A DNA stretch of 64,000 nucleotides, taken from Psammoneis japonica. Taxonomy: Eukaryota. The notes under the pieces are model-generated. The model was not told the origin of the DNA. It ran no database searches and saw nothing but the letters and a program-made list of their open reading frames with translations. The stretch covers positions 124,001 through 188,000 of the forward strand of contig QPGO01000024.1 in assembly GCA_008632985.1 (NCBI GenBank), read 5' to 3'. A program made the position numbers and the translations under genes. Below, one piece after another: positions 4,049 through 27,800 of the stretch (its first letter is position 1; each line of letters opens with the position of its first letter).

Positions 4049-4102
4049 ATGGTATGGTAAAACGTGCCTGCTGTCTGTAGTTAGTGAGTGTACGGCTGTG
4101 AA

Positions 4103-5700: not shown

Positions 5701-6993
5701 ATGGTGATTGAAAAACAAGCGGAACGTGACGGAACCAAGGGGTCGCTTTTCAAGAAGAGAAGGGTTGCTGGGTTCAAAAAAGCAAAAGCCAGAGGGCGCA
5801 TCCAATCCCGAAGACAGGACTCGGATGACGACGACAAAGAGACATCAGACCGCAACAACGATGAAGGGGAATCAGCAATGGACGCTATTGTTGCCGCTAA
5901 AAAGAAACGAAAATTGTTAAACTCTGTTTTGGGAAAGAGTCGGCGAGGGTTGGATACCGCGTTGTTGATGCAACCCAAGGCGGCTGCCGAGACGGACGAT
6001 GACGCCACAGGGGTTCCAGCCGCCAATAAGGATTTGTCGAGGCGCCTAAAAGGCAATTTTAGCGAAGGGGGTGAAACAGGTGATGGATCTGGGGACACGG
6101 CAATGCAGCGAAAACACAAGGACGCGATGGAGGAGTTTATTATGAAAAGTATGAAAACAAAGACAAGCAACGACGAATCATCCGGCCAAGGCAATGCAGA
6201 GAAGAAATCCACCACGAAATCAAGAGATTTGGAGGCACAACTTTATGAAGAATTAGCGTCTTCGGCCATGAAATTGAGTGGCCAAGCTGCAAATGACGAT
6301 ACGCATTTAAATGCCCCGCAAGAGCAGGAAGGAGATGTAGGTGCTGGTGGAGCCATGTTGGGTGGCACTGGAATTGCTGAGGTTGCCTTGGATCTAGATT
6401 CGAGAATGAATACCTTACAAGCAACACAGCAAGCTGTTGCCGCCAGAGAACGGACGCGACGTGACGAGTTTCCATCTCCCTCCCAGCATGCAGTTATGGA
6501 ACCCGAGCAGATTCACGAGCAGATGCTGCCAGTGAGCTTCAGCGTTGGCAAGGGGAAACGGGGGAAGCAAACACCCGTCGTCTCTGCGTTTGTTCCTACC
6601 ATCACAAAACCACTTGATACGCAAACCGCAAAGTCAAACGCAGGCGGTCCAACAGCTTCATCTGCTGGTGTTGATGTTCTGAGCAGCGACGTTTCAGGGC
6701 TGGGGTCTTCAGTAAGTCAGAATTATCGTCTTCACAATCAAGAATGGATATCTCAAAAGAAAGAGCAGCAAGGAAACGAATCTGAAATGGCAAGGCAGCA
6801 AGAGATTGAGGACGTGGGAACAGCGGCTAACCAGGAACGCCTCGGATTTGAGGCTGCACGAAGAATTGCTCGTGGAGAACCCGCTAGTGATGCGACATCG
6901 ACAAGAGGAAGAGATGGAAACCCTCACGGCGACCGGCATCGCTCCAACGATGATCGAGCTTTCAAGAATTTCATCCAAAAGACTCGTCGCTAA
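5701..6993 (+). CDS. C9orf78/HCA59/TLS1-like splicing-associated protein
   Basis: 430-aa ORF with MLGGTGIAEVALDLDSRM (resembles the GIxEVDL core) and C-terminal SNDDRAFKNF. Confidence 0.65.
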   Translation: MVIEKQAERDGTKGSLFKKRRVAGFKKAKARGRIQSRRQDSDDDDKETSDRNNDEGESAMDAIVAAKKKRKLLNSVLGKSRRGLDTALLMQPKAAAETDDDATGVPAANKDLSRRLKGNFSEGGETGDGSGDTAMQRKHKDAMEEFIMKSMKTKTSNDESSGQGNAEKKSTTKSRDLEAQLYEELASSAMKLSGQAANDDTHLNAPQEQEGDVGAGGAMLGGTGIAEVALDLDSRMNTLQATQQAVAARERTRRDEFPSPSQHAVMEPEQIHEQMLPVSFSVGKGKRGKQTPVVSAFVPTITKPLDTQTAKSNAGGPTASSAGVDVLSSDVSGLGSSVSQNYRLHNQEWISQKKEQQGNESEMARQQEIEDVGTAANQERLGFEAARRIARGEPASDATSTRGRDGNPHGDRHRSNDDRAFKNFIQKTRR

Positions 6994-7095
6994 CTAGAGA
7001 GAGGCGTTTGAAATACTCTACGCCTGTTGTTGGCAATGTCATTTGTATTGCTGTTCCTACAGTAGTTTACAAAGGCGGTCTAAACTCGTCTGAAT

Positions 7096-7488
7096 TTAAT
7101 TTCCGCGGTTATTCAACAAGTGGCATACCTTTGCCGGATCGCCACAGTTGAAAACGTAGGTCTTGTCCTTGCCTGCATTGTCAATAATTACTCGGACGGC
7201 GGGTCCATTTCTCGCAATGTAGCCAATATCACCGGAAAGATTGAATCGAATCCCCCATCCTCCCCAGGAGGTTAACCCGTTGACATGTTCGACGGGGTTC
7301 GCCGACTTGACGGCATCCAGAGACGTGGACTTCTGTGTCACATCATATGCGTACCCAAATCCTAGGCTGTCTTTCGTGATCGTCACATGGTAGCGCCAAA
7401 ACAATGGCATGAGGGGAAAGACCAAAACGAGTGCCGCCAGAAATGGAGGACGGTACTCCTCATGATAGAGTTGCTGGTGACCGCTCAT
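7096..7488 (-). CDS. Small membrane-anchored protein of unknown function (one TM segment, WGGWGIR motif)
   Basis: ATG at 7488 (MSGHQQ), hydrophobic FLAALVLVFPLMPLFW, then a beta-rich domain with WGGWGIR. Confidence 0.6.
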   Translation of the reverse strand: MSGHQQLYHEEYRPPFLAALVLVFPLMPLFWRYHVTITKDSLGFGYAYDVTQKSTSLDAVKSANPVEHVNGLTSWGGWGIRFNLSGDIGYIARNGPAVRVIIDNAGKDKTYVFNCGDPAKVCHLLNNRGN

Positions 7489-7837
7489 GTTGTCAGCGGG
7501 TTTGTTTGCCTCATTTTTGTTCTTCCGCGACTGCCGCCAAGCAGCAACCGCCACAACAGAATTTAAGTCCCGTTGGGTTGACCGACTGACGAGCAGACCT
7601 CCGAACATCTGTAGAAATCTACGCAGCGTTTGTACGACGAGCAGGATCGCATCGCCACCATCCAACTTTTTTGTTCCCCGCCCACAAAATGAGCTGAGAA
7701 CAAACGAACTTGGAGCCACCCAAAGTCTTCGTTTTCAAACAGATTAGCGATAGCAGATTACCGTACAAAGTAGTGTCTGCTGATCATTCTCTCGGACTTT
7801 GTCTTCTCAATATACGAGAGAATTGATCTGTGTCAAA

Positions 7838-10055
7838 ATGCCGGTTTATAACTTCAAGAAAATGGGCCCCGTCCCGTCGGCGCCGGAGCTTATCGACATT
7901 GTTCTAATGAGGACGCAGCGGCGAACTCCGACTGTGATTCACCCCGGCTACAAAATTACAAGGATTCGCTCTTTTTAGTAAGTTTCCCCGTGACTTCCCA
8001 GTGCCTCGAGACTTGAATCTAGACTCTAACGCTGACATGGCCTCTTTTTTGCGACCCGCTTCATACCGTAGCATGCGAAAGATCAAATTTACTCAGCAAA
8101 CTATTTCTGAGCGATTGGGGGCGATTCTGTCGGACTTTCCCCGTCTAAATGACATTCATCCGTTCTATGCAGACTTGTGCAACACTCTCTACGATCGAGA
8201 CCACTACAAGCTGGCGTTGGGTCAACTCAATACAGCACGCTCTCTTGTCGATGCCATTGCACGCGACATGATCCGTATGGTCAAGTACGGCGATTCGCTG
8301 TATCGGTGCAAGTGCCTCAAGCGAGCGGCGCTTGGTCGGATGTGTACCGTACTCAAGCGCCAAAAGGCCTCGTTGGCGTACCTTGAGGAAGTGCGCAAGC
8401 ACTTGTCTCGTCTTCCAGCCTTGGACCCAAACACCCGCACCATTCTCATGTGCGGCTTGCCGAACGTTGGCAAATCAAGTTTTATGAACAAGATCACACG
8501 TGCCAACGTTGATGTTCAACCATACGCCTTTACTACCAAGTCGCTCTTTGTGGGACATTGTGATTACCGCTATCTGCGGTGGCAAGTCATTGACACTCCG
8601 GGGATTTTGGATCATCCACTCGAGGAGCGCAACACCATTGAGATGCAAGCCATAACGGCTTTGGCGCACTTGACATGCAGTGTCCTCTACTTTGTTGACA
8701 TTTCGGAGCAATGTGGATACACTATTGAACAACAGTGTTCCCTTTTCCGAAGTATCAAACCACTGTTCGCAAACAAGCAGTTGATTGTGGTTGTGAACAA
8801 AATTGATCAACAGCCCTGGGAGACTCTCGAACAGTCAAAGAAAGCAATGGTTCAGGCCTTGGTGGACGATGCCAATTGCTCTCTCATGACAATGTCCAAC
8901 ATGTCAGAGGAGGGCGTATCTCAAGTCAAATCGACTGCCTGTGACAAGCTGCTGGCGTCTCGTGTAGATTCGCGTATCAACGGTAAGAAGATTGGCAACG
9001 TCATGAATCGCATCCAGGTATTCCAGCCCGTTCCTCGTGACAACGTGGAGCGCGGTGTGTGTATTCCGGAATCGGTTCTCCAAGGAGACTCCTCCAATAA
9101 CGCAGATGACCACAAGCCAAGGCGCTCCAAAGTGGGATACGCTCCGACCGTCAAGGATAGTAGTAGTGACGGCGACGTTCTCATGGATGGCAATGACGGA
9201 ATCAAAAAGACCGCCCGCGACCTTATGTGGGAAAATGGTGGTCCTGGTGTCTGGGCACCTGACTATCGTGAGCAGTACGATCTCAAAGATGAAGAATGGA
9301 AGTTCGACGCGATTCCTCAGATTTTGGATGGGAAGAACATTGCCGACTACGTTGATCCTGACATCGAAGCGAAGCTGACTGCTTTGGAACAAGAGGAAGA
9401 GCAGCTAGCGGCAGAGCTGGCAGCTGCAGGCGAAGAGGACATGGAGTCAGACTTGGACAGCGAAGAGGAAGCGGCGGTGGAGGCAATTCGTGAGCGAAAA
9501 CGTACGACTCGCCTCATGGCTCGTACCGACCGAACTCAGAACAAGCCTGTTCGGCCAAGGTCTATTCGTGGACGGACCAAGGACAAGCATGATGCCGGCG
9601 CGCTTGATGCGAATGAAATCAAAAAGAAGATGGATCGTTACGGCGTGGATAGCTCTAGAATGCTGGAACGCGGCAGAACCATGGAACGCGGCAGAAAGCG
9701 AGAACGATCTCTAAGTCGAAGAAGGCGCGGTGATGACCTTATGGAGAGCCATACTTCTGACGAGGAAATGATGGACGTCAGCATGAGCAAGGGCAAGATT
9801 AAGAGAGCGAAGAAGGCTCGTGCTGAGTCGGTGCGTCGGGATGCAAGTCTTGCTCGCAGTCATTCTCGCCCACGTAAGCCCTCACAAGTTGGACTCAAGG
9901 ACGACGCAGCCGCCAAGGTTGCGAAGAAGCTGGAGAAGGAAGGAAGAAAGATGTGGACCGGGGCTAGTGGCGAAGGAGACAAGCGGAAGAGTGTGCATTT
10001 GGTCAAATGGATGAACACTGGCAAAAAACGGAACGGAACTCACTACTGTCGTTAG
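7838..10055 (+). CDS. NOG1: Nucleolar GTP-binding protein 1 (NOG1/GTPBP4); intron 7978-8071
   Basis: Exon 1 [70 protein letters not shown]-terminal [11 protein letters not shown]. Confidence 0.97.
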
Positions 10056-13000
10056 AGACATCGGCTTCTGTTGATGTCCTGTAGTGTATGGAAAATAGAG
10101 TGAGGCGGGCATTTTTGACGTTCTCGCTTGTCATGCCGAAAGATTCCAAGTTAGCTTTTGAGTAATAAACCAAGAATTATCTACTGCTACTAACTCTTGA
10201 TTTCATGAGTCAAAGGATGAAAGGACTTGCATGTGAATCTGGTCGGCCTGCCGCTGGAGAAAAAGCAAGAGGAGACCGGCATTGACCACGACAACACGGA
10301 AGCAAGAAGAAAAAAAGCGTAGCAATCTCATTTGCCTGCAGTGCCTGGCGTGCAAGAGAAAACAAGAGAGAGCTCTGACGGTGTGGGCGTGACACTGTGC
10401 TTATCTGTTGGCGCGGCACACTTGAGGTGCACTCGCAAAGTGCACACATTGACTTTTCCCAATTGGCATCATGCGGCATGTCCAACACAGCCACCAGTGA
10501 AAACCTGTGCATCACATCCTTTCTGTTCTTTTCTTCACTCCTAACTGCCCCACAAGAAATGTCCACTCCAAGGAACCCATGCCATGTGAAGCAAATCTTT
10601 CATTGTTGATGCTTCGTCCTTTCTCATGGGTTGGCATCAGTGGCTCTCTGGGGGGGGATGCTGTGTTGCTGGAGTTTGCAGGATCAGAAGGTTCCTCAGC
10701 TTGAAGTTGGCATCCCCTGCCCTGTCCACACTCTTGAAAAATAATGGTTCTGTCAATGCCATTGTGAGCTCGTGAACAAACTCCTTGCTCATTCAACCCT
10801 TTTGCATGCAGGAACACCCTTGCCAAGCCAATGAAACTTTTGTGTCTGGCTTGACTGTGTTTGAGCTACATGCATCAAACACCCTGGCAACAGCATCACA
10901 CAGGCAGTCTGCATCAATTTGTCCAGTGCATGTGGTCAAACAAATTGTCAACAAGGGCTCTGCCCTGATCTTCTCGTGTGCTCTTTCCCACACCCTTGAT
11001 GAAAAATGGAGCATGCTGTGTTTTTGGAAACCCCTCTTTGACCAACAACAAAAACAACAAGGTTGCTCTTGAGTGCAACACATGATTGAGACCAATGAGA
11101 ATCATTTGGTCCTGAGAGTCATGCACAGAAATTGTGCAGGCCAGTGCAAAAAATGTCAAGTTGTCCTCCGCACATCTGTCCATCACACTTCTTGGGTGTC
11201 AGTTTTTCTTGGGAGTTCAACTGGAGTGCAATCTGATCAAACACATTGTTCTTTGCCATGCAAAGTGAAGCACCTTTGATCAGATGGCAATCAACTGACA
11301 TTTCCCTCAAAGTCATTGGCTCCAACCACCCTCTCAAACAACACTGTGTGTGCATTTCAGCATGACTTTGTGTCTTTTCCTTGTGCAAGAAAAGCAGCTT
11401 TGACTGTTGAGTGAAAGGCTCCTGTTGAAGCAATCTGCAAGCCATCATGAGGGCAACCCTCTTTCAAAATGTTGGCTGTGCTTGACTCCTTTTGGAATTT
11501 TTGAACAATGCCAAGGGCTCTCAAGATGCTGCACCCACAATCTTCAATGAGATCAACCCCAACTCATTGTGGTCAACAGCAAAGCCTGTCCTTGTGCAAG
11601 CTTTAACAACAGAAACAGCCCCATCATTGGCAACTTTCCAGTTGCCAGAGTTGTCACCATTCAAAGCACCTGGGACATTCTTCAAGTCTTGGAGGGGGGG
11701 GGGGGGGGGGGGGGCAAAAGAATGATGTGAGGAAGCACAGCTGTCAAAGTCAACTCTGTCTCACCAAATGGCAAGCAAGATTTGGAGGTTTCTGCAAATT
11801 TCTCCAGCTTGGTTTTGTCAACTCGAATGTGTTTTGCCTCACAGTGTTGGCTTGGAATTGGGCTCCAGTTGAGCCTGGGAAGTTTTGTCTTTGGAGGCCA
11901 TTCCTGTTCAGGGACATCACGGCTGCCATCCTTGCAACAGAGATGCCAGGTGCCCAGCACTTGGCTGGCTGGCTTTCCCATTGCCTGCTGAGTTGACCCT
12001 TTTGAACATTTGTCACCCACACAGCAGTGGGGCTGGAAATGCCAGTTGTTGCCACTGCCGTGCAACTGTGCTGAAAAAAGGATTGGCCAGGCAGGTGCCA
12101 GACAGAGATGCTTTGAGTCTGGAGCCGCCACAATCTGCTGCCAGTGAAAAAGCTGACCATGCAACACTGGCTTTGCTTCTTTTGGCAACCATTGGAGGAC
12201 ATGCCAAATGGATGAATGGAGATGCCATGGTCTGAAGCAGTCATGATCTGCTGCTGGGCATGCAGGCTGGCTGGCAACTGCCAACACTTGTCACAGGAGC
12301 AGCTGCTTCTAAAAAACTGATGAAGCCAACTAGCTGGCATCAACTGGCTGGATGACAATCAGTGAAGAAGCTCTCAAGCTGGCAGTGGAAAGAACTTGCA
12401 GTGTCTTTGTGCATGCCTTTGAGCAAGTGCAAGTCTTTGTGCTTTGTGGCAATGGCTCAATGACAAAAACCACATGTGGTCTAGCATTTTTGACATTTGA
12501 TGGGTGGATTTTGCCAACTGTCATGTGCAGGCATTGCGCACAATTGTGGCACTCTTGCTGCTTTCCACCTCAGCTCAAGCACACCTCCTTTGCAATGTCT
12601 CTGCTTCCAGCTTTCATCAAAGGCACTCTCTCTCTCTTTGGGCAACAAATCAACAGAGAAATTGCTGAGCTTGATGTTGTCTACTCACAAAGAGCTCTCT
12701 GGATGGCGCCATCAGGCAAATGCACTGAGACAAGCAACTTTGAGAAACTGGTGGGTGGTTGCTGACAACAGCACATGCAAGAAGGAGGATGGCTGGAAAC
12801 ATTTTTGTGAAAACTTTGTCAGTTGAGCCAACACCTTTGCTGCACTCACAAAACCTGATCCTGACAATCTCCTGCAACAAAGCAACTGCAACAAAAACTC
12901 AACAATTCAGTGGCAGCACATCTGATCAAGCCTGTGTCAGTTGACTTGCTCTGGGAGCTTGGGTCATGTTGATGCTTTTGCTTGTGTCAGAGGAGGGGGA

Positions 13001-13099
13001 GAGGCCTTTGATCATGGAACAAGCCACCTTGTCCTTGTTGTGGGCTGGGGCACTGCCCAGCAAATTGGGCTGCAAGAAGACTTCCACAACAACAGCACA

Positions 13100-14950
13100 T
13101 TTTTGCAGGAGAAAACAATGGCACAGCTGTTTTTATTTTGTTGGAACATTGGGGTCAGGGGCAGTTTTTGCAGGACAGACAGACAATGTTGCAGTGCAAC
13201 ATGCTCTGACAATTGTGGGCAATGTGGTGAAGTTGCATTTGCAACTTGCATTGAGTTTCAGGTCTTGTGCTCCCTTTTTGGCTTCTGCACCCAGTTGACA
13301 TGGCAGCAAGCTCAGCAGTTGACAGCATTGGTGGAAATGTGTTTGCAAGCCACACAGGGCGTTTGGGGTCAGTGAGGCTGAATGTGTGCCAGTTGGTGAG
13401 CCATGAAACTCCAACACAGAAGCCAAAAAGCAGTGGAATGACACTCAAAGGAGCGGTGGTGTTCAAAGGAGCATCTAGTGTTGGTGCATTGTGGCAAACT
13501 GGCTTGCTGGATGAGGGCAAAGAAATGATCTCTGGAGGGCCTTGCTGTCAACAAAGCTGTCGAGGGCCCTCTTTCTGCCAAAAGAGGGTGCAGCAAGGTT
13601 TTGTTGGGGTTGGCAAGACTCAGCATGTGACTGTCGGTGCAAGCCACAATGCTCCAAAATTGGTTAAAAAAAATGGGCAAAGACACAGCTGAGTGCAGAA
13701 GCACAAAAGATTCAATGGAGTGGGTGCATGATGCCATTCTTGCCAAGTTGGGATGACAGGCAGATGGTTGCACAGAGACCACAAACAAGATCAGCAAGCA
13801 TGTTGGCAGAATGTTTGGGCCAGAGATGCTGATGCTGGCATCTGTGAAGCAGGAGAGCATGCCAAAAGAGCCAGAGAGTGTCTGTTGGTGGACACTGCAC
13901 TGGAGAAGGAAAAGGCAATCTGTGGCAGTCCCAAGAAGCAATGTGGTCACCATGAAACACTCTGCAAGATGCAGAAGGCAAAGGCATTTGACACAATTGT
14001 GGGATGATGCACAAAGGCAGTTCATCACAAGAAGATTGAAGGAGTGACAGAGCTTGTGAGAGTCACAAACACAAAGGAGTGGGACATGGCAGCACTTTTG
14101 GAGGTTCTCATCAGTCTCAGTCTTGTTCTCAATGCAAATGAGAAGACATGCCAGCATGTCCAGGTGGTCAAGGCTTGGAAGCAGTTGGTGCTCATTTGTC
14201 AAGATGAAGGAGAGGCACTTTAAGATCACATTGCAGTCAGCTCATGAGCATTGTCACAGTGACAGAAATGTCCCATGGCAGGATCATCTCAGAAGACAAA
14301 ATCGCCAAGAAAGAAGATGGGTTCAGCAAGGATGCTGATGACACCTGAAACAAAGAAAGAAACAAGTTGTTGGTGGTGTGCCAATGGAAGGTGCAAAGAA
14401 GGAACACTGCTGGCATGTCTTGAAAGACCTGCATCAGCAGTTTGCACTGGGGGTCGACAATTGCCCCAATTTGGCGGAGGAGGCATTGCAGGTGCTGCAC
14501 ACATGTGGGACCAACAAGAAACCTGAGGGTGCAAGTTTTGCACAGAACAAGAAGAAGCAGATCAAGTGCTGGAAATGTGATGATTGTCCTGACAATGTCA
14601 TTCATTGGCAGAGTCAGATGATGTGGGTCATGGCAATCAGTGGAGCAGTCAAAGTGGTGTTGGGTGGCATGGTTTTCAAGTGTCATCCTCCTGTGCATGC
14701 TTGATGTGCACAAGGCCAATCAATTGACAGCTTGTGTGAAGGAGTGTGTTGGAACATTGGGGTCAGAGGTGGTTTTCCCAGGACAAACAGACAATGTTGC
14801 AGTGCAAGATGTGTTGACAATTGCAGGCAACACAGCAAAGTTGCAATCATGACTCAGGTTGCAGGTTGTGTGCTCACTTTTTGGCTTTTGGAATGTGTTC
14901 AAAACAAGCCACATGGCGAGTTTTGGTCAGCAAGCTGCAAAACTCCAACA
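13100..14950 (+). mobile_element. Repeat family A, copy 1 (degenerate gag-like remnant, zinc knuckle partly deleted)
   Basis: Colinear with parts of 18975-19537/24845-26240 and 59660-61650, e.g. shared GTGGTCAAGGCTTGGAAGCAGTTGGTGCTCATTTG. Confidence 0.7.
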
Positions 14951-15749
14951 GAGTTTTGCAGGCAGCTGCAGAGGTTGCTGTGGGTTGTCTTGGATCCACC
15001 AGGGGCTCCAGGTGCAGGTTTGTCATGTCAAGAGAGCTTGAAGCAGTGGACAGTGCTGGTGGAATCTTGGGAACACAAATGCAACCGGAGGGCTGAATGA
15101 TGTGTGTTGCACAGCAGGGGCAAAGCAGAGATGGGAGGTGCCAACAAGAACAACCACCTTGGTGCAACAAGCCACAAGAGCTTCTTCAATCTTGTGGTCC
15201 ATCATCCATCAGGATGAACAAGATGCTTGGTCAAAAGATGCAGGACTGGTGACTTTGAGGGGTGCTTTTCTGAAGAGCGATGCAGCAACCGGTGGTGCAT
15301 CTGCAGGGTCAAGGGTTTCCAGAAGGATGAGTTCTTGAAAAATGTGTTCCCAAAGCAGATCAACAATGCTGTCTTTGGCCTTCCCATGCTTGGGATCATC
15401 AAAGAACTGATCCAAGTCAATGATGCCACCACCGCAAAGGCTGTTGCCAGTCTGCAGGGCCTGTGCATTGACAAAAAAAGCACTTCCAGGATCAAAAATG
15501 GTGGCAGGCATGTTCAGCTCACAAAACAAGCACAAATCACAGTGGAAATTGCTGCAGTGCAGAAGGGTGACAACCCAATGAGTGCACAACATGTCAGAGT
15601 GCCAACGGCAGCATGAGGAACAAGCCAAAGAGCTCCCTGCAAACCAGCAACAGCAGTGGACAACACACATGTGCTGGCAAGAAAGAGTGACAAGAAGTTC
15701 TCAGAGAGATCATCTTGTCCATCTGAAGGCATGCATTTGACCATCATCT

Positions 15750-18700
15750 ACACACAGTCTGACCTTGCACAGGGTCAGCTGACAGTTGCAGAACAGATGT
15801 CCTTGTGCAGGGGTTGCTGGCTGTTGTGTCTTGGCTTCTGACAACAGGACTTTGACAGCAGCCAAAAGTTGCTGTGTGAATTGACAGGCTCTGTGTTGCT
15901 GCTGCAACTCTCCAGATCAGAGCACTGCTCTGAAGCTTGCTTTGGAGCACGCTGGACTCCAGGTGCCACCAGCATGGAAAAACTTCCAACCTGGACAGAG
16001 GCTCTGGTGTTGACGAGACTGCTGGTGTTTGTTCCATGATCCAGCTTTCCTCTGCAATGATGACATGTTTTGCACACACACAAAATGTGAGAGAGAAAGA
16101 GAGGAAGTTCAAAAACTGACATTTGCAGCACTGAAAATGATGAGGTTGAACTCTGTCCAAGCTCCTGCTGCACACAAAAAGTCCTGAGTGAGAAAATTGC
16201 ATGGAATTTGCACTGGGGGACCCAAAAAAGTCCAGAACAACATGATTTTTAGCTTTTTTTTTGGACATCCCTGGCACTGCTTTTATGTTGGATTCTGCAA
16301 AGTTCTAGAAAATCCTGTCACTCTGGACATTTTGTGCTCCCTGGCACAAACTCTGTGCACCATTTTTGCTCTAGACTTTCTGTGCATGGCAGTGCAGGTC
16401 AGGCTGATGCTCTTGTTAAGATCCACTTGGTTGACCAGGTTTTGAGCATCCTCTTCTGTGCAGTGTAGACCAGAGATTCTTCCACACATTGACAAAATGA
16501 ACAAGAGTGTCAGAGGCAAAATGTGAGAGTGGAGCTTTCACAAATCTTATGATCCATGGAGGCATGCTGGCCACGCACATGCAGACACATTGGCTGATCA
16601 TCTTTTGGGAGTTTGGCTTGCCTCTCAGCTCTCAAAGATCCAAGGTTGGGACAGCAGCTGTGGTTGGCTGCCAAATGACTTGAGGTCAGTTGGAACAATT
16701 GACTGCCACAGCTGATGATCCTTTGATTGCTGACAATGGCAAGTTTCAAATGAGAAACTCTCAAATTAAAACACTGAACACACTGTCAACTGGGAGCTTT
16801 TGGTCCTGAGTTGTGTCATTGCCTTCATGCCAAGCCCCAACCTGCAATGATGTCACTCCAGCATCAGAAGGGAGCAACAGCCCAATCATGCTGCAAATCT
16901 TCTTCCAATGGCACCTGTCTGTCAAATGTTTTTTTGAACATGGTGCATCCACAGAATCATGCCCTGCTTGTGAAGCAGAGATCCTGAAAACTCAAAGAGG
17001 GGGGGGGGGGTGGAGTTGTCAAATGAAGATCACAGGTTTTGCAAAACAGCCAGTGTCTTCTTTAGGAAGGATCGCTGCACCCCTTGCCAGGAAAAGTTGC
17101 CTGCCAGCACATGTCACATGTGGTCATTCATTCTGGGCAAGAGCCATCATTGCATGGAAATTGTTGCCAAGCACTTCAGTCATTGGCCAGCAGCTTTTTC
17201 ACATTCACAACTGCTCAGGATGACGTGTGCCAGGGTTTGACAACCAAATTCATGGCAGTCATTGTGGAAACAACTAAGCAACATCCTTTGAAGGCAGAGT
17301 TTCAAATGCCATGGTCAACAATGACATTGCCAAAACATGCCACGCACATCTTTCTGACTCTTCCAAACAAGATGCTGCCACAACCAGCACTCATTTGAAA
17401 AAGATTGTGTTGCATGGTTGAAAAAAATGGATTGTGCAAGGCAGCATTTTTTGTCATCCAGGACTGCACAGATGATGGATGTGCCAAGCAATGCAGGCAT
17501 GATTTGGCATTGCGTGTGTTGTCTGTGTTTGTGCACAAATGCAAAAAATTGTGTTCAACCCAGCAGTTGGTGCACCTGGACATGGGGCAAGGGAGAAGTG
17601 GGTGGCACTGGAGCACACACAAAGTCTGTGGCATCAGAGGGGGGAAATGTGGCCCATTGATTTGGTGACAGGAGCAAACAAAAAAGCCAAGAAAAGTGGT
17701 GCAAATGTGCCAGATGTTGCAGATTAAGACAATTGTGTTGTCAAGTCACACAACAGTGCTTGAAAGTTCTTGAAAGGGGGGAAAGTGCAAAAGGGACAAA
17801 TTTGTGGCAATTGTTGGAGATGTTGATGTCCGCTGGAGTTTTGCCATGGCAACAAAACTGCCTGGAATGTCTTTGCAGATGACTGCAGTGGTCTTGGTCA
17901 CAGTGGCCACAAATTTCTTGAATGTGAGCTTGCACCATGCTTTCCAGCATTGACAATGGTGGCAGGAAGAGGGTCGGCAATGGTGCCAGTGCTCACAGTG
18001 GAAATGACAGCCATGCAGAAAAGGACATCATGAGCAGCTTTCACAGTTGAGAGGTGAGTCAGAAGCAATTCTGAAAACTGTGATGACTTGACCAACAAAG
18101 AAATTCTGTGTGCACTGCACCAGTCTTCAACACAAAAGTCATGCAGAAGGTGCACACCATGTGAACCTCAAAGAACAAGTGGCGCCGGCTGTCAGGGGTG
18201 AGAAAAGCAAATTTTGCAGTCACACTGCAATGGTGTGGGTCACAGTGTGAACTCAATTTTCAAAAGCCAGCAACAGCATGGTTGCATGGGCTGCATCTGT
18301 TCTGTTTTGCATCTTCTCCTTTTTGAGGTTTTGCAGCTTGAATTGTCAACATTGGGCACCCCCATGCTTGTTGAGTCATGCAAAGTGAGGTGAGCAACCA
18401 AGCTGCTGAGCTCTGCCTCAGAATGTTTGAATGCAGGCATGGGATGAGTTTGCAATGACAGTGACTCCAGGTGCACACATTTGATGGAAGTTTTGTGGGT
18501 CAGCAGAGGAGAGCAAGACAACCACACAATTGCTCACCCACTGAATCTCATTGTTCACACACAGGGCCTGCACTGCAATCATCATGAGTTGTGTCTTCAA
18601 TGCCATTGGTGGCAAGCATCCTGTCTCTCTTGACCAAATTTGAGCACATCAGCCAATTGTCCCCAATTGACCAACCCACACTGGCACACCTTGTTTGCTG

Positions 18701-18944
18701 AGCTCACATGCCTGCTGTGGTTGCTTGTTGCAAGCAACATCCAGGAGCAGTGGTTGCCACCACCATGCAGAAACAAGAAAAAATGCTTCCCAAGATGTGC
18801 TCTGAGCAGCATGGTGACAAGCAGCTACAAGAAATTGACCTGCTTGGGTGTGTGACACAATGAGCTGAGAGACGAAGGGCAGACAAACTTGGGCCAGTCA
18901 TTTTGCTTGCTGAGATTGACCTCTTGCTTGGCAGGGCAACTCAA
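15750..18944. repeat. Repeat family B, copy 1 (about 3.2 kb, unclassified)
   Basis: Colinear with 52376-55968 from CACAGTCTGACCTTGCACAGG to GGCAGGGCAACTCAA. Lacks about 360 bp present at 53145-53505. Confidence 0.9.
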
Positions 18945-19537
18945 TGCAGTTGCTCCTTTTTTCTGGCATGTTTGTGGATTTTTAAGAGCAAAATGGGCAA
19001 GGCAAAAATGGCGTGCAGCATTGGAACACAGGGGTCAGAGGTGGTTTTTGCAGGACAGACATGCAAAGTTGCAGTGGAAAGACACACCAATGATTTTGGA
19101 CAACATGGTGGCTAAGTTTGCATTCACAACTTGGATTGAGTTGCTGGTCCTGTGCTCACTTTTTAAGTTCTGCACTGGGTTGACATGGCATTGGTGGTTG
19201 ACAGTGCAAGCAATGTGTTTGCAAGCCATGGGCTGAGCTGGGAGTCAGTGAGACCAAATGTGTGCTGGCCGGAGATCCACAAAACTCCAACACAGAAGCC
19301 AAAAAGGCACGGCATGACACTCAAAGGAGTGTCATCATCAGAAGGCTGGGAAGATGAGAGGAATCCAAGAAAAAGGCTGGGAAGTTGACAAGAATCCAAA
19401 GTTGTGCTTCATGTTGGCGGGTCACACCAGCAAACAAACTGGCTGGATGAGGGCAAAGAAATGATCGCTGGAGTGCCTTGCTGTCAACAAAGCTGTCAAG
19501 GGTCTGCTGAAAGAGGGTGTGGCAAGGTTGTGTCAGG

Positions 19538-19969
19538 TGCCCCATGCATGCAACAGGCGACGAAAATGCAGATGTGTTTCAATTGTGTCATTGTGGAAAA
19601 TTATGAGCTAATTTCATGTAGAGAAATGGGGTCGTAGGAACAGGGAATCGCATCAAATTCGCTGTTCGTTTGCATTGTGGATCGCACCAATCGATCGTGC
19701 ATTCGCATTGTGGATCGTGCGAATCACACCAACACGCGCTGCGCACGAGTGATGTCATCGTGTGGAATCACACTGCTGTTGTGGGCCAGACAACAGGTTA
19801 GTGTGCTTCACACGGATGCTCTCTTAGCATCCTTCTGGATTTGCCTGAGACACAGAGCCACATCCTCCTGTGGTCTTGCTTCCCAGGTGCGTGCTGACAA
19901 CACTGCGTTGTCACGCACAAGAGGCCATGCACAGTCTTGCCGTGTTGTCCAGTGCTGAGGCATGCTGCA
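19538..19969 (-). repeat. Gypsy 3' LTR (432 bp)
   Basis: Direct repeat of 24408-24840; adjacent polypurine tract. Confidence 0.92.
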
Positions 19970-20185
19970 CACTCCCCCATGATCAGGGCTGTTGAGTGAC
20001 AGAATGTCTCACTGGTGACAGGGCACAATCTGCCATAGATTGCATGCATCTGTCAGTGCTCCATTCTGGATGCGCAACGTGCCATTGTCACACACACGGA
20101 CAACTCTGGCAGGTCCTGCATGGCAGTCAGAAATGCACTTAGAAGATTGTTCTTGTTTTGTGAGCGCCAATTGCCCAACGGTGTG

Positions 20186-23100
20186 TCAGTGCTCCTTGTG
20201 TTTCTGATTTTCACGCTTGATGTTTGGGTGGATGAGCTTCTGTTTTCTAGTTTCCATGTGCTTCCACTTGGCACGATGGGCAATGGACAAAATTGCATCG
20301 CGTCCGAAGACCAATTGCATGGGACTTGCACGCATGGTTGCATGCACCGTGGCTCTAACAGCAAAGGCTGCAGCAGATGGGATGCCACTCCAGGGGTCAT
20401 CCTCATCCACTTCCACATCTTGCACTGAAAATGAGCGTGCCACATTGCCAAGTGTCTGGTGCGCACATTCCACTGTGGCACTCGCCTGTGGATTGTGCTC
20501 ACTTGTGGGTTTCTTCAGAATCCCACAGTCATTTTTAATCATCTGGCTAAATTCTGCCATGAATTCTGTCCCACAGTCATGTGCTGCCTGGGTTGGCCAC
20601 GGATGTCTGTGCAGCCAAGTTTGTTCCATGACGTTTGCTGCTGCATCTGCAAGTTTTGCAGACACTTCCTTGATCTCAAACCACCCGGTTGCCGGATCAA
20701 TCACAGTGACCGCCCATGATTGCAAGGTGTCTTTTCTGCATCTTTGGATTTTGTAGGGCCCTGTCATGTCTGTGCATGGAGTCTCCCAAGGAATTGTCTC
20801 AGCAACCATTTTTGGTGGCTTGCCATGACGCTGCATTTGGCGTTTTGTCCTCTGGCATCGTTCGCACTTAACGCATGTAGAATGCACCGCAGACCTCACA
20901 CCAGGCCAGCAGAAGTGCTGGGCAATGAATGTTTCCACACGTGTCTCACCTGGATGACACAGTGTTTTGTGGTGTTGTTCAGTTGATGGAACCTGCAATG
21001 ACTGAGGCACTGCAATTTTGTCCTTATGAAATGTTGACTGTCGCACTGACCCTCCCCCATGATGCACACGAATGGAGCAGTCAGACGAGTCCTCAGCTCG
21101 CTGCAGTGGGTGCTTGTCCTGTTGCTGCTCTTTTTGGATGCGCTTGAAGCCAACAGGCAGAGGTGCAGTGTCTGGCACGTCTGCATTGAAAGCTTCATGT
21201 GGGAGACGACTCGATGGAGTGTCTTCTACATCTGGATTGGATTTGGAAGGCAAAGGTGGTGCCAGCCAAAGGCGACTAAGAGCATCAGCGACTGGGTTGT
21301 GGGTGCCCTTGACATGTCGTAATTCGGGTCTGCACTCTTCACATGTCAACCGCCAGCGCATCACACGTTCGGCATTGAATGCTTTGCATGTTAGATTTTT
21401 GTGATCAGCACACATGATTGTGCGATGACCAAGGAGCATCATTCGAAATTCTTTCAACGTCTCCACAATGGCGAGCAATTCTCTCTCTGTTGTTGTGTGA
21501 TTTAATCTGTTGTTGTGTGATTTAATTGTGCACTGTCAAGCTTTCTGCTGCAGAGTGCGATTGGTTGGTCATCTTGGGATGCAACTGCTCCCAATTGACA
21601 TTTAGAGGCATTGGCATGCATCTCAAAGGGTTCATTAAAATCAGGATGTTTTAACAAGACATTGTCTGACATTGAGCGTTTGATGGTTTCAAATGCCTCA
21701 TCTTCAACGGACGTCCATTGCCACTCAACAGTCTCGCCAACGAGTCGTGTCAGTGGAGCCAAGACTTCAGAATGTCTGGTCCACGTGTCACGGCAGCAGT
21801 TTGCCATGCCTGTGAATGAGCGCAGGTTGCGCTCATTTGTGGGCTTCGCGATGCATTCAATGGAGTCAATTTTTTTGTGCATTGGCCGTGTGCCATCACG
21901 GTTGATGAGACAACCCAAGTGTTCTAATTGGGTTTGACAGAAGTGTGACTTAGTTGCGTTAACTTCAAGTCCTGCTTCTTCAAGTTTCTTGAGGTGATCT
22001 TCACAGGTGCCTTTTGGCACAACGAGAAGGTCATCCAAGTGCATTTGAACAAACAACAGATCTTTGAACAAGCTTGACATGCGTTCTTGGAAGATGTCTG
22101 GCGAATTGCGTGACCCCATGGGCAACACCTGCATCTCACACTTGCCCCATGGGAAGATGAGCACACAGAGCTTCTCACTGTCAGCATCCAGTCAGACGTG
22201 ACAATGACCCACATTAAGATCCAACGATGCAGCCCACACAAAGCCTTCGAGCTTTTAGTGGCATGTCCTGGATGTGAGGGATCTGACAAGGCAATCACTT
22301 AATCCGTTCACTCAGCTCCCTGAAATCATTCATAAATCGTGCCGTCAAGTCTTTCTTTGGCATGACAAAAGATGGAGCCACCCATTGGGATTGGTTGACG
22401 CATTTGAGAACACCCATGCACACAAGGCGCTCTGCTTCTTTACGCAGTGTAGCTTCGTGCGCACAAGGAGCTTTGTGCGGACCAGTGTGGCATGGTTCTG
22501 CGTTGTTCTTGAGTTGGATGTGGCAGGGTTCTCCCTTCCATTCTCCTAAAGTCCCATCAAATGAGGACTCATGGCGTTTCAATGATGCCAAAAGGTCGTT
22601 CTGTTGAACAACAGAAAGTCCTGTTGCCCCTTGCGTCATGTCCTCAAGGCATGCTGGTGTGTGCTTGGCATCCAAAATGCGTGAAATCTGGTCGGTTTCT
22701 GAAGTTGAGGCTTCTGGATCGTCAAGAAAGAAGGAGGTTTCTGCTGTCACATCTGCGTGCCACATTGGTGCTTCTCCATTGACTGTTGGCCACTCTGTCA
22801 TCTGTTCAGAGAAGACAATGTCAATGCCTTGTGCTTCCAGAATGTCTCGTCCAATGATCACATCGCACTTGCCCAACTTTCCATTGTGCACGTGGACAGC
22901 ATGCACAAGTTCCGCAGTCTCGGACAGTTCTGGCAACTTAAATTTAACGGTGCAATCGCTGACCACACTGAACCAGCCTGCTGCCATTGTCCAGTTTGTC
23001 TCAGCCATCAAACAGCTTTGCAAATGCTTGCAGCGTTGCTTGTTCAGCAGAGCACTGCTGGCGCCGCTGTCTGGCAGCGCCTCAACAGTCTGAGTCTTGC

Positions 23101-24312
23101 CTTTGCCATGTTCAGCATTCACAGCTGCAAACAAGATTGGTGCAAGATGAGTCTTTTTAACTCGTTTGCGGGATTGGCCTGCAACACATGTACGACGGCA
23201 TGTCAGTTGTTCATTCATGCATTCATCTAATGTGTTGAAACTGCCAGTGTCATGTCGGCCCCCTTCTCAGGTGTCCGAATCATCGGCATTGCTCAAGTCA
23301 AGGTCGCGGAAGTGATTGAGCTCTTCCTCATGTGCCTTGCACTTCTTCTCAGCATTGGCAAAGCATTCGTCCACCTTCGTTCCGATGACAGCATGACCAT
23401 CTTCTTCAGGCTTGGATTTCTGATTGGGCTTGCCACCTGCACCATTGGTGTGTGGCTGGTCTTGACACGCTTCACATGGTGCTTGAGTGCACAACAATCA
23501 TCAGCATGATGTCCACAGTTGGTCCCGTGGAGCACACACAACTTCTGGGTGTTCTTCTGATTTGTGATCAACAACTCAGGATTGTCTGTTCTGCGGCCCT
23601 GCTCACATGGAACCTCAGCATGTTGGTCCTGGTTGCCTTTGGTGAGCTCGACCTGCTCGATGCGCTCACAGAACTGTACGAACTTGGCCACAGCATGAGC
23701 CAACAGATCAAAATTCTGTGGCATCATGATTTTCTGCCACGCGTTTGGCACTCCGCACTCAAATGAGTCACAGAGTTCATCATTGGGCAATGACTCTGGT
23801 GCTGCTCCACCCTGCGTCAGAGGCGGAAACTGAGAGATGCAGCCATTGAGTTCAACAGCCCTCACGACACAGTCATGAGCAGAGACTTCAGCGGGCTTGC
23901 ACATGAAGCGTCGCAGACAACGTTTCTGCAGCAGCACTGCCCCATGAGGGAAGACACTTTCCTTTAGCTTTGCCATGCACACAGCATGCACAGCGTTGGT
24001 TTGGGATGCCTGCTCTTCAGCGGCGTCATTGAAGGTTGTCAGGGCATCGCCCTTGAGGAACCTGCACACAAGTGCAAACTTGGCCGGCCCCGCAGTCATG
24101 TTTTGTCCTTGATGCACGCGCTCGGAGTTGTGCAGAAGGACAAGGAGTTCCTTGCATGTTCCCGCAGAATGGTGCGGTGTGCCCATCTTGTGTGTTGGAC
24201 TGTCAGGATCAGTGGGGTCATTGCGCAGCTTGAACATCTGGTGCTCACCCTGCTGCAGTTCCTTCTTCTCCGGCCATGCGAATGGAGTCGGCGGCTTGAG
24301 ACGCTTCTTCAT
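20186..24312 (-). pseudogene. Gypsy gag-pol pseudogene
   Basis: gag FKLRNDPTDPDSPT; protease ALPDSGAS; RT LPMG..HLDD; RNase H ANASKCQLGAV, SRKL, ADHKNL, VADALSR; integrase H..H..C..C, DMTGP, DCGTEF, NPQASATVE. Frameshifts include a 20-bp tandem duplication at 21486-21525. Confidence 0.92.
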
Positions 24313-24407
24313 GGTGATTTTCGAGTTTGTTGGTCCTGCCAACATGTTGCAGCATTCGTTTTTGTAGATTTTGTAACCTCGCACACCATGCGGGAGCAAT
24401 GTCACTG

Positions 24408-24840
24408 TGCCCCATGCATGCAACAGGCAACAAAAATGCAGATGTGTTTCAATTGTGTTGTTGTGGAAAATTATGAGCTGGTTTACATGCAGAGAAATGG
24501 GATCGTACGAACAGAGAATCGCATCAAATTCGCTGTCTGTTCACATCATGGATTGCACCAATCGATCGTGCGTTCGCATCATGGATCGTGCGAATCACAC
24601 CAACACACGCCATGCACAAGTGATGTCATCGTGTGGAATCACGCTGCTGTTGTGGGCCAGACAACAGGTCAGTGTGCTTCACACAGATGCTCTCTTGGCA
24701 TCCTTCTGGATTTGCCTGAGACACAGAGCCACGCCCTCCTGTGGTTGTGCTTCCCAGGTGCATGCTGACAATGCTGCGTTGTCACACACAAGAGGCCATG
24801 CACGGTCTCGCCATGTTGTCCAGTGCTGAGGCATGCTGCA
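24408..24840 (-). repeat. Gypsy 5' LTR (433 bp)
   Basis: Direct repeat of 19538-19969, followed on the + strand by TSD CAGG. Confidence 0.92.
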
Positions 24841-27800
24841 CAGGGTCAGCAACACAGGGTGTTCACCTGTCAACAAGCCATGAAACTCCAACACAAGTCC
24901 CAAAAAAGATGGGCAAGAACACAGCTGAGTGTGGAAGCATGAAAGATTGAAGGAGTGGGTGTGTGACACCATTGCCAAGTTGGGATGACAGGCAGATGGT
25001 TGCACAGAAACCACAAGGAAGATGGGCGAGCATGTCAGAAGAATGCTCAGCTGGAGATGCAGGCACTGGTGTCTCTGAAGCAAGAGAGCACCACCCCAAA
25101 AGAGCTGGAGCATCTGTGGGGAGTCACCCTGTGGGAGAAGGACTGGAGCAAGGAATGTGGTCACAATGCAAAACAGGGTGCAATCTACAAGACACATGAG
25201 GGAAAAGCGTTTGACGTTGTTTGAGGGGCAATGTGCAAAGGTCATTCACCACAAGTTGAAGGAGTGACAGAGTTTGCAAGAAGAGTTAGAAAGGAGTGGG
25301 ACATGGCAGCACTGCTGGATGTTCTCAAGTCAATCTTGTTCCAGGCAAAAGAGAAGACAAACCCACACGTTGGGGTGGTCAAGGCTTGGAAGCAGTTGGT
25401 GCTCATTTGTTGAGATGAAGGAGAGGTGCTTCAATGTCAATGTGACTGGCCCATGAGTCTGGTTGAAGTGGTGAAAGCATCTTGTGGCAGGATCACCATC
25501 ATGGAAGAAATCACCAAGAAAGAAGGTGGGTTCAGCAAAGATGCCAATCACAACCAGAAAAAAGAAAGGGACAAGTTGTTGGCAGTGACGCCAATGGAAA
25601 GTGCCAAGGAACATTGGCGTGTCTCAAAAGACCCATGTTGGCAGTTCACACTGGGGGGCGACATTTGTCCCAACTCAACTGAGGAGGAACTGCAGATGTT
25701 GGACACCTGTGGGACCAATGAGAAACCTGATGGTGCAAGTTTTGCACAGAGCAAGAAGAAGCATGTCAGATGCTGGAAATGCAACAAGGTTGGGCATGTG
25801 AGAAAAGATTGTCCTGATGACAGCTGTCATCCATCAGTGGAGTCAAATGATGTGGGCCACTGGAGTCAACAGAACAGTTGACATGGTGTTGGGTGGCATG
25901 GATTCCAAGTGTTGTTCTCCCATGCTTGATGCACACAAGGCCAATGTCATCAGTTGATGGCTTGTGCGAAGGAGTGTGTTGGATCATTGGGGCCGCAGGA
26001 AGTTTTTGCAAAGGACAGATGACAGACAAAGTTGCAGTGGAAAGACACACTGATGATTGTGGATGATGCAGCAAGTTTGTCTTGTGCTCACATTTTTGCT
26101 TCTGCACCTGGTTGACATGGTGTTGCGGGCAGTGGTTGACAGCACTGGCAGCAATGCATTTGTGAGCCACACAGTGAGTCAGGAGACAGTGGTGTGGCCA
26201 AATGCATGCCAGTCGGTGAGCTGTGAAACTCCAACATGCAGACAGATCTCCTGTGAAGTGTCCCAAAGAGCTGGCACTTGAGAAGTTGCTCAAATGCAAT
26301 GACCCGTGTGCTTGTTGCTGGGCATGAACAAGTGCTTTCTTGTGGCTGCCTTTGTGAAAACCACCGCCAGAATCAACTCTGAAAAATTGAGAGGAGAACT
26401 TGACAAGAGAAAAGAAATTCTGTGCACATGACACCAGCCTTTCTGGCACAACAGTCACTTGCAGTGCACACAGGTGCAGCCCTTGAGGAAGCCGTTGTGT
26501 GAAAGCAAGTTTTTGTGGTGTCGCGCTGGCTCATGTGCATGTTTCAATGATTCCACAGCCATGGCCAGCCTTGACATTGGCATTGATTCATCAGATGAAG
26601 ACGGATTCAAAAGACATTCTCGCTGTTGAACACAAAACACCGGCGACTCGCGTTAATCTCAAGGACTGTAAACAGCTGGGACCCATGTTGTCACGCGGAG
26701 AGCTTCTCATGACGGATGCAGGCAATGAACTTTCAAACTTGGTCAAGGTGTGCTTGTCTCCTTCTCATCACAACTTGTGTGACTTGGCCGTGAAGCTCAT
26801 GATTTCCCGCGAAAAGCCAGCTTGCCTCTTGTCTCTCCTGAGCATCTTGCTGGAGCACGGACTTCGACAAGAATGGTGCCACGTGAATTGTTGGCCTTTA
26901 GACGCCATTGCTTGCCCGGGTGCCTGCTTTGTCACTCTTGATGGCCATGGCCAACAACAACAGCACAATCTGCTCTTGTGTCCTCACTTGTGTCTTGATG
27001 ATGGTTTAGAGAAGCCAAATTCTCTGGTGCACAAATTGGGCGGATTGACAATTGTGCTGCTGAGCAATCTGCATTGTTCCTCTTGTGGCGGTCCCATCAT
27101 CAGTGCCGGTCTGTCTCATGGCATGTTTGATGCGCACCTGGAGGCTGAGGTTTCAACGTGCCAGGAAAGCAAGAGCAATGATCATTTGTGGGATGCAGCT
27201 CAAGCCGTGTTTGCAGCACTTGAGGGAGCTGCAAGATCACCTTCATCAGAGCTGCGCCAGTGTCAACCAGTCTTTTCCTTTTCAGCTGGAGCAAATCAAG
27301 ATGCTCAAAAGATGCTGATGCAGTTGGAGCATCTGCAATTTTTTCAAGCGTCAGACGACAGTGGCCACCACAGTCCAACAAGCACCTGCGCTGATCCATT
27401 GCATCTTGGTGTGCCAATGGAGTTGTTGCAACAGGGGTTGAAACAAGTCCTGCCCTTTTCCAGTGGTCACCCTCATTGGGACGCTCAGGCTGCTTTTGTG
27501 GAACATGATTGCAGCATGAAACTAGCGTGTTGTACAGCTGCTTGAGCTCTTCTTGCCAACGTGGCAACAGCTTCAGCTGTCCATCTGTGTCTCCCCCCTG
27601 CCCTGACCCTGAACGGACCAGAGACAGACGGGTGAGACAAAGTCGGGGTTTGGGGCTGACCACTTTCAAAATGACCAAATTTGCAAGTGGTCTTTGCATG
27701 CAAAATAGAGTGCAATGACTTTTGCATGGTTCGGGGTTTCACAAAAATCACTCTGTTCACTGACACAAAACATTCCGAATTTTGTGTTGCCCCAGTCATT

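Follow-up and report, generated by a model that had tools for sequence, protein, structure and literature searches.

Flanking-base bias among the TpA steps that survive in TA-stripped repeat blocks of the diatom Psammoneis japonica

The DNA analysed in this study is a 64-kb stretch (the window) of the nuclear genome of the diatom Psammoneis japonica (assembly GCA_008632985.1, contig QPGO01000024.1, positions 124,001 to 188,000), in which gene islands alternate with three blocks that have been stripped of nearly all of their TA dinucleotides (TpA steps). Here we describe the bases that flank the few TA steps still present in these blocks, and consider which process may have removed the others. 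The features of the window are listed in Table 1.

The gene islands (1-10000, 30001-39500, 46001-49000 and 62501-64000) served as the unmutated control. Their genes are long intron-free open reading frames (ORFs), encoding NOG1, a Ras-like GTPase, a sulfotransferase and Hep_59, and their dinucleotide composition is ordinary, with observed/expected ratios of 0.58 for TA and 1.01 for CG. The blocks end abruptly, within a few hundred bases, and the adjoining host genes (NOG1, Ras and others) keep a TA ratio of 0.58. Within the blocks (38.5 kb as defined for counting) there are 169 TA, compared with 1,461 expected at island density, together with 858 CG, 4285 TG and 4037 CA; the corresponding ratios are 0.07 (TA), 0.37 (CG), 1.69 (TG) and 1.77 (CA). 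The loss of CpG is uneven among the blocks (ratios from 0.02 to 0.9), whereas that of TA is near-total in all of them, so the two losses are separable and that of TA is the faster. The disappearance of CpG is a separate, slower process, probably the decay of 5-methylcytosine.

A young gypsy retrotransposon, considered below, belongs to a family that is high-copy in the public run X1, with a summed word depth of 3,000-14,000, compared with about 60-130 in the old repeats that flank it. Several X1 contigs match the window with 0-1 differences, and X1 may be the window's own assembly data.

Table 1. Features of the window (LTR, long terminal repeat; RT, reverse transcriptase)
Feature	Coordinates	Strand	Remarks
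NOG1 gene	7938-10055		closest relatives 83% identical; diatom homologues (Attheya, Chaetoceros, Nitzschia, Dactyliosolen) 72-76%
Mutated block 1	10200-30000		TA count per 500 bases drops from 12-14 to 0-3 beyond about 10200-10540, with recovery at 30009; repeat families recurring in block 3
Range of the first context count	11600-23200		TA/CG-poor old repeat block up to 19536, then gypsy 3' LTR and part of pol
Gypsy element	19537-24842	minus	435-base LTRs; Pfam RT, RNase H, integrase
Gypsy 3' LTR	19537-19971	minus	90.6% identical to 24407-24842
Gypsy pol (protease, RT, RNase H, integrase)	20012-23266	minus	three frames; Pfam RVT_1, RT_RNaseH, Integrase_H2C2; matches a profile of 50 homologues
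Gypsy other LTR	24407-24842	minus	partner of 19537-19971
gag remnant	25414-25878		in block 1; zf-CCHC (zinc knuckle)
60-base tandem array	32028-32577		between genes; 8.9 copies, 88% matches; internal inverted repeat
Mutated block 2	39730-46018		0-2 TA per 500 bases; CG observed/expected 0.4-0.6; copia pol fragments inside
Copia pol fragments	41012-43672	minus	RVT_2; profile of 40 full-length homologues matches eight fragments
Mutated block 3	48860-62350		ORF chain, kinase pseudogene, 117-base tandem array, copies of block 1 repeats (52377-55968, 59660-61952)
ORF chain	48828-52166	minus	1,113 codons, three internal stops; Cys/His-rich
Protein-kinase pseudogene	56804-58360	minus	HRDLK, DFG; GTPMCMAPG where kinases usually have Tyr
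117-base tandem array	59016-59597		in block 3; 5 copies, 96% matches; AT-rich, CG kept

Sequence context of the surviving TA steps

A sequence-only reading of the range 11600-23200 had noted that the TA steps left there are mostly of the TTAA and CTAG types. All 17 of the sites that it listed exist, each at most 10 bases from the place given: twelve TTAA sites (TA at 11604, 13665, 14221, 16417, 16767, 17725, 18983, 21503, 21636, 21960, 22939 and 23158) and five CTAG/TCTA sites (TA at 12331, 12482, 13476, 16306 and 16372). A complete count bears out this preference. The range (11,601 bases) contains 64 TA, 160 CG, 1355 TG and 1292 CA, and its TA steps comprise TTAA (20), CTAA and TTAG (9 each), CTAG and GTAG (6 each), TTAT (5), CTAC (4) and single instances of ATAA, ATAG, GTAA, GTAC and TTAC; ATAC, ATAT, CTAT and GTAT are absent. 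In terms of purine (R) and pyrimidine (Y) flanks, 44 of the 64 (69%) are YTAR and one is RTAY, compared with 160 YTAR among 888 TA of the islands (Fisher p = 3 × 10⁻¹⁷).

The same bias was observed when all blocks were counted: YTAR accounts for 100 of the 169 TA (59%), as against 164 of 948 in the islands, or 160 of 888 without a TA-rich tandem array (17-18%), and RTAY for 7 of 169, as against 302 of 948 (32%). The tetramers ATAC, GTAT and ATAT, which occur 204 times in the islands, have no survivors in the blocks. A comparison of all 16 NTAN tetramers, which the sequence-only reading had proposed as a check, confirmed that the tables for blocks and islands differ (chi-square 187.7, 15 degrees of freedom [df], p = 7 × 10⁻³²). 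When the survivors were divided by age, YTAR made up 28 of the 47 TA of the young gypsy element (60%), 36 of 52 in the oldest, CG-poor DNA (69%), in which RTAY was not found at all (0/52), and 27 of 61 in DNA of intermediate CG content (44%). Removal of the 117-base tandem array and of one member of each duplicated pair left 78 YTAR and 6 RTAY among 140 TA.

Since host genes may poorly represent the ancestors of transposons, a second background was assembled from 78 metagenome loci encoding intact relatives of the gypsy pol (21,521 TA). TA is normal in all 78 (observed/expected 0.56-1.18, median 0.755); the search patterns contained tyrosine, so that mutated copies could not be found and this result is uninformative on the presence of the mutator in other organisms. 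YTAR and RTAY constitute 25.1% and 26.0% of TA in this background, from which the blocks differ strongly (p = 1 × 10⁻²⁰ for YTAR, p = 7 × 10⁻¹⁴ for RTAY), as does the gypsy element considered separately (YTAR 28/47, p = 6 × 10⁻⁷; RTAY 3/47, p = 0.001). Moreover, transitions preserve the purine or pyrimidine class of the flanking bases, so decay of the flanks cannot have created the bias. The neighbour-base bias among the surviving TA steps is thus real and robust.

Expressed as density relative to the islands, survival is highest for TTAA (0.64), followed by CTAA/TTAG (0.39), CTAG (0.17), GTAA/TTAC (0.11), CTAC/GTAG (0.10), ATAA/TTAT (0.09), GTAC (0.05) and ATAG/CTAT (0.04), and falls to zero for ATAC/GTAT (0 vs 149) and ATAT (0 vs 55). 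The bias extends to the next position: A occupies +2 in 167 of 338 half-sites, compared with 106.6 expected from the trinucleotides of the blocks themselves (p = 8 × 10⁻¹¹), without a comparable effect in the islands (512 vs 486 expected, p = 0.03). Typical surviving sites are TTTAAA, GTTAAA, ATTAAA and TCTAAA, and all nine TA of the 117-base array are TCTAAA or TTTAAA.

The counts were fitted with a four-parameter Poisson model, in which the hazard of each A is set by its own 3' neighbour, so that the survival of a step xTAy equals exp(-(k(y)+k(complement of x))). The fitted hazards were 0.22 for A, 0.78 for G, 1.72 for C (interval 1.45-2.04) and 2.51 for T (2.16-3.04). This model is far superior to a flat one (likelihood-ratio chi-square 203, 3 df), and the bootstrapped ratio k(Y)/k(R) amounts to 4.1 (3.1-6.2).

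Products, strands and timing of the changes

The ancestral state of many lost TA steps can be recovered from conserved proteins. The three frames of the gypsy pol were aligned to 50 homologues (45-57% identical, with a tyrosine content of 2.9-4.8%); for the eight copia fragments, 40 full-length homologues were used. Columns with at least 60% tyrosine were treated as conserved. Among the 24 such columns of gypsy there are now 12 Cys, 10 His, 1 Met and 1 Tyr, and among the 28 of copia 15 Cys, 10 His and one each of Leu, Phe and Tyr, which gives 27 Cys, 20 His, 3 other residues and 2 Tyr for both elements. Tryptophan, by comparison, is retained in 30 of 32 conserved columns. The YxDD motif of the gypsy reverse transcriptase reads MHLDD. 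Since conserved tyrosines have become Cys or His, TA became TG and CA, i.e. both DNA strands were affected, and about equally (27 vs 20, p = 0.38).

The changes are specific to TpA. At the second codon position, A-to-G replacement affected 27 of the 52 adenines that follow T, as against 7/110 for a preceding A, 1/58 for C and 0/136 for G; at the first position, 22 of 25 A-to-G replacements follow T. The difference between TA-to-TG and AA-to-AG is highly significant (p = 1.5 × 10⁻¹⁰), and AA is not depleted, with an observed/expected ratio of 1.22 in the blocks and 1.15 in the islands. Because A-to-G change is nearly confined to adenines that follow T, the process is TpA-specific rather than WA-specific (W, A or T). 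The signature of DNA polymerase eta at WA, against which the sequence-only reading had argued from intact A-runs, was rejected on these grounds.

The changes arose in DNA after insertion or duplication, as follows from differences between the two gypsy LTRs and between repeat copies. The LTR pair differs at 40 positions, of which 32 are changes of state at a Y-R step, including CG vs TG/CA (16), CA vs TG (6) and TA vs TG/CA (4). Between repeat copies there are 49 sites with CA in one copy and TG in the other, and a by-eye check of the copies for strand-coordinated runs of TG-type or CA-type changes revealed none. Gene copies unrelated to transposons are also mutated, as exemplified by the protein-kinase pseudogene. 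Another feature of the LTR pair is that CG-vs-CA sites (12) outnumber CG-vs-TG sites (4), which may reflect a strand bias of CpG decay.

The sequence-only reading had suggested TAY and/or RTA as the target. If each strand were attacked at T-A-Y, YTAY should become YTGY, and RTAR should become RCAR, in about 76-80% of asymmetric sites. Measured as the excess of TG and CA over the island baseline in asymmetric contexts, the share of the predicted strand was 0.61 (bootstrap 0.54-0.69), a value diluted by TG and CA derived from CpG; it was highest for TTAC/GTAA (0.69), and CTAT/ATAG showed no bias (0.53). A comparison of gypsy with its unmutated relatives, in which CpG loss is negligible, gave a share of 0.66 (standard error 0.03): YTAY gains 84 TG vs 27.5 CA, and RTAR gains 59.5 CA vs 47.6 TG. 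Sites that could be polarised individually followed the predicted direction in 24 of 35 cases (p = 0.02), made up of tyrosine codons after a pyrimidine (14 Cys to 6 His), isoleucine ATA codons before a purine (5 Thr to 3 Met) and pairs of copies (5 to 2). Valine GTA and leucine TTA/CTA codons are unusable as clean tests of direction, because one of their outcomes is synonymous and indistinguishable from ancestral GTG, TTG or CTG. On the sense strand of gypsy the gain of TG (261) exceeds that of CA (191; p = 0.001).

The suggested target held in sign and rough size (YTAR spared, RTAY erased), although the strand direction followed it only moderately, in a share of 0.61-0.69. We conclude that a 3' pyrimidine does influence the choice of strand, with an effect smaller than the survival data would lead one to expect.

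Processes that may have erased the TA steps

These results are likely to be the outcome of a process that acts after insertion on both strands of dead repeats, converting TpA to TpG or CpA in a flank-dependent manner, with T-A-Y as its target on each strand. The blocks would then represent dead LTR retrotransposons (gypsy and copia), other repeats and gene copies within the diatom nuclear genome, and the process would operate at the DNA level, where either A:T pair of the step would undergo a transition to G:C. RTAY steps would be lost fastest (ATAT, ATAC/GTAT and GTAC), YTAY and RTAR at an intermediate speed and YTAR most slowly, with TTAA outlasting all other tetramers. The simplest description that would fit is a per-strand 5'-T-A-Y-3' (equal to 5'-R-T-A-3' on the partner strand), in which T at +1 is about equal to C, followed by G and then A, and A at +2 adds protection. 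The bias among the survivors, the specificity for TpA, the involvement of both strands and the timing after insertion are demonstrated by the counts; beyond these, we infer that the flank bias reflects the substrate choice of an enzyme, which is most likely a deaminase-type activity on DNA adenine, directed to silenced repeats.

Several observations weigh against this interpretation. The direction shares (0.61-0.69) are lower than the 0.76-0.8 predicted from survival, and the raw ratio of YTGY+RCAR to YCAY+RTGR is similar in the blocks (2460:1793) and the islands (1025:787; odds ratio 1.05, p = 0.36), so that the bias is visible only as an excess over baseline. Tyrosine codons preceded by T yielded 3 Cys and 6 His, as against about 90% Cys predicted (p = 6 × 10⁻⁵), whereas those preceded by C yielded 11 Cys and no His; none of the models tried explains this contrast, which was drawn post hoc for gypsy and copia together (Fisher p = 0.002). 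In ten conserved leucine columns TTA or CTA before a pyrimidine has changed to TCA or CCA, which is the disfavoured outcome, the favoured one being synonymous and therefore not countable (at most 26). The fit of the hazard model is marginal (residual deviance 21.1 on 12 df, p = 0.048), with 4 TTAC found vs 11.8 expected. Furthermore, the island and relative backgrounds are stand-ins for the ancestral composition of the old blocks, and part of the TA in the blocks may have been created anew, especially where a third codon position is synonymous. The weakness of the direction bias implies either that the base on the far side also matters, i.e. that a duplex R-T-A-Y is involved, or that mixed ages and re-created TA distort the survival data.

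The first of these options can be taken further. If a duplex R-T-A-Y palindrome were recognised, the TA step as a whole would become more mutable through both of its flanks, with a nearly random choice of strand. Survival data alone cannot separate such a mechanism from a per-strand one, and the low direction shares, the outcome for tyrosine codons after T and the ten Leu-to-Ser/Pro changes in YTAY contexts all favour it. We nevertheless regard it as rather unlikely, since the predicted direction prevails in three estimates (0.61, 0.66 and 24/35), tyrosine codons after C gave Cys exclusively, and the additive-hazard fit places nearly the whole effect on one flank per strand.

T-A-Y and R-T-A describe the same base pair, so that sequence alone cannot separate an adenine target from a thymine target. 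All of the counts would fit equally well a TET/JBP-like enzyme that oxidises or otherwise modifies the T of 5'-R-T-A-3' in silenced repeats, the product mispairing with G and giving rise to T-to-C changes; 5-hydroxymethyluracil prefers TpA in dinoflagellates, and base J prefers T before A. A thymine lesion seems unlikely to us; the excess of TG gains over CA gains on the gypsy sense strand would fit an attack on A of the non-template strand, although the baseline of that comparison is uncertain.

The bias could also originate in repair, if lesions formed at all TpA steps and the inosine:thymine or mispair intermediates were better corrected in YTAR or A-tract surroundings. The sequence data give the net outcome only, and the effect of A at +2 could reflect local DNA structure. 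We consider this origin quite unlikely; a per-strand direction bias is expected under repair and mutator readings alike.

It is highly doubtful that most of the present TA is new, having been formed from the abundant CA and TG by ordinary or TpC-biased C-to-T mutation (TCA to TTA, TGA to TAA), with the excess of TTAA as a result of creation. The dominance of the TTAN and NTAA classes agrees with such an origin, the oldest blocks may be at equilibrium, and C-to-T change at third positions before a codon that starts with A is synonymous and thus possible. However, creation in proportion to xTGy+xCAy was rejected (chi-square 162, p = 8 × 10⁻²⁷), and TTAC (4) and TTAT (10) are rarer than TTAG (20), though TCAC (194) and TCAT (238) are about as frequent as TCAG (226). 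In addition, the young gypsy element already shows the bias, and its in-codon TA steps sit at columns where the homologues have Leu, Val or Tyr.

Finally, A-to-I (adenosine-to-inosine) editing of the element's transcripts by an ADAR-like or TadA/ADAT-like enzyme, with fixation by reverse transcription, would share the 5' U/T neighbour common to ADAR and TadA, but it is close to refuted by the about equal involvement of both strands (which argues against editing of sense RNA), by the differences between the two LTRs of a single insertion, by the mutated kinase pseudogene, which bears no sign of retrotransposition, and by the roughly threefold slower change of TAG relative to TAY, opposite to the 3' G preference of ADAR.

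The TpA erasure seen here has its closest known counterpart in Bigelowiella natans, as described by Mettrop et al. in a 2026 preprint (bioRxiv 10.64898/2026.01.13.699255): in mutation-accumulation lines, every hypermutation of integrated viral DNA is located at TpA and produces TpG or CpA. De novo TpA mutations (231) were scored there as they arose, at a rate about 1000 times the background. TpA-poor coding sequences of that host are enriched in RT and DDE domains, and its authors propose, but do not demonstrate, an adenine deaminase (an ADAT2 homologue). As far as described in that source, the two systems agree in that TpA alone is hit, in the TpG and CpA products, in confinement to foreign or repeat DNA and in the long-term footprint of TpA depletion with CpA/TpG enrichment. 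They differ in host and target, B. natans being a chlorarachniophyte (Rhizaria) with insertions of giant viruses and virophages, whereas LTR retrotransposons, repeats and gene copies of a diatom are affected here. Depletion is far deeper in the diatom (observed/expected 0.07 vs 0.45 for the nucleocytoplasmic large DNA virus [NCLDV] region of B. natans), and CpG decay accompanies the loss of TA, unlike in B. natans. The main text of the preprint names no flank preference, which may be shown in its Figure 2B or Table S2. A full-text literature search found TpA-directed hypermutation only in this preprint, without any diatom example, and no natural enzyme that deaminates adenine in DNA.

So far, the erasure of TpA has been described in a single preprint, which deals with an unrelated alga. 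The flank rule of the process is quantified here, and the present analysis adds a background of transposon relatives, a TpA specificity polarised by protein comparison, the effect at +2 and a direction bias weaker than the survival bias. A further and more tentative possibility, rather doubtful as a whole, is that diatoms possess a native DNA adenine deaminase aimed at silenced repeats, with the target 5'-T-A-Y-3' and protective A-tracts, as a natural counterpart of laboratory adenine base editors. Given the shared TpA signature of a diatom and a chlorarachniophyte, it might even belong to an old genome defence of the SAR (Stramenopiles, Alveolata and Rhizaria) lineages; certain families of transposons would have adapted to this defence by purging synonymous TA. 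If true, such an enzyme would be of interest for base-editing work.

Among other systems, repeat-induced point mutation (RIP) of Neurospora and other fungi is similar in that heavy, transition-only mutation strikes repeated or mobile DNA after insertion, with a dinucleotide target, flank preferences and sparing of genes. RIP, however, makes TpA from CpA by C-to-T change, whereas in the blocks TpA is destroyed by A:T-to-G:C change. A RIP-type process was therefore rejected, the low TA (0.07) and high CA (1.77) and TG (1.69) being the opposite of its expected outcome. Fungal RIP depends on RID, to which the diatom DNMT4 is related, as stated in PMC9998398. With respect to duplication, further copies of the mutated DNA occur in the window or in run X1, yet the repeated 60-base array is untouched by TA loss and TA-rich, with 51 TA in 32001-32500; short tandem repeats seem to escape the mutator.

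The sequence-only reading had further seen an echo of the UACG substrate of TadA. Sites of bacterial TadA share UACG, in an extended form YUACGAA, as given in PMC11472039. TadA, ADAT2-ADAT3 and adenine base editors resemble the process inferred here in that A is converted to I (read as G) and U or T is needed 5' of A, and T at -1 is found here. The substrate, however, is chromosomal DNA, T at +1 is at least as good as C (2.51 vs 1.72), and G at +2 is unfavoured, the mutator preferring C or T at +2. TACG is not depleted among the survivors, accounting for 14 of 54 TAC half-sites, as against 123 of 547 in the islands (p = 0.61), whereas TACC and TACT together account for 6 of 54, as against 243 of 547 (p = 8 × 10⁻⁷), both comparisons being confounded by CpG decay. 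The supposed echo was not borne out.

For ADAR, a preference for a 5' U/T neighbour is quoted in bioRxiv 10.64898/2026.01.13.699255. The A-to-G outcome and the order of 5' neighbours observed here (T far ahead of A, followed by C and G; 27/52, 7/110, 1/58 and 0/136) are similar. The target is DNA, however, the LTRs diverged after insertion, and G at the 3' side is disfavoured relative to C and T. ADAR prefers G 3' of the target A, and ADARs are not known outside animals. A 3' G preference of the ADAR type was rejected by the hazards (k(G) 0.78 vs k(C) 1.72 and k(T) 2.51), and ADAR-type action on RNA by the 32 Y-R-step differences between the LTRs and by the involvement of both strands.

Taken together, a strict requirement for T at -1, a ranking at +1 in which T and C exceed G and G exceeds A, protection by A at +2 and action on both strands form a fingerprint that speaks against specificities of the ADAR, pol eta and plain TadA (UACG) types. 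The fingerprint predicts the oligonucleotides that a candidate enzyme should prefer and can be compared with the 231 de novo mutations of Bigelowiella. The flank rule also explains the persistence of TTAA-type sites in otherwise TA-free repeats, which matters for repeat-age models and for the annotation of such genomes.

Further features of the window

In the copia pol, C precedes 64 of 92 unchanged codons that start with A, compared with 81 of 185 codons that start with C or T, and only 3 first-position A-to-G changes following T were found. TA at codon borders was thus removed almost exclusively by the synonymous route, and the copia family may therefore have lost TA under selection while it was still active.

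The ORF chain of block 3 has a TA ratio of 0.07-0.19 and nearly normal CpG (0.58-0.94), and may be a mobile element or a gene copy caught early in TA erasure. Pfam searches (E up to 0.01) gave no match for most of the ORFs in the blocks, including this chain. The right end of block 2 (45001-46000) is C-rich (421 C, 150 G; GC skew -0.475), and its translation is rich in Pro and Thr. In block 1, a run of 21 G is located at 11694-11714, and contigs of run X1 break exactly at this run.

Three ORFs of the gene islands contain domains of bacterial type, i.e. an Ssb-like OB fold (659-2128), a YiiD_C thioesterase (32814-33542) and a RusA resolvase (62789-63454); their products may be targeted to organelles.

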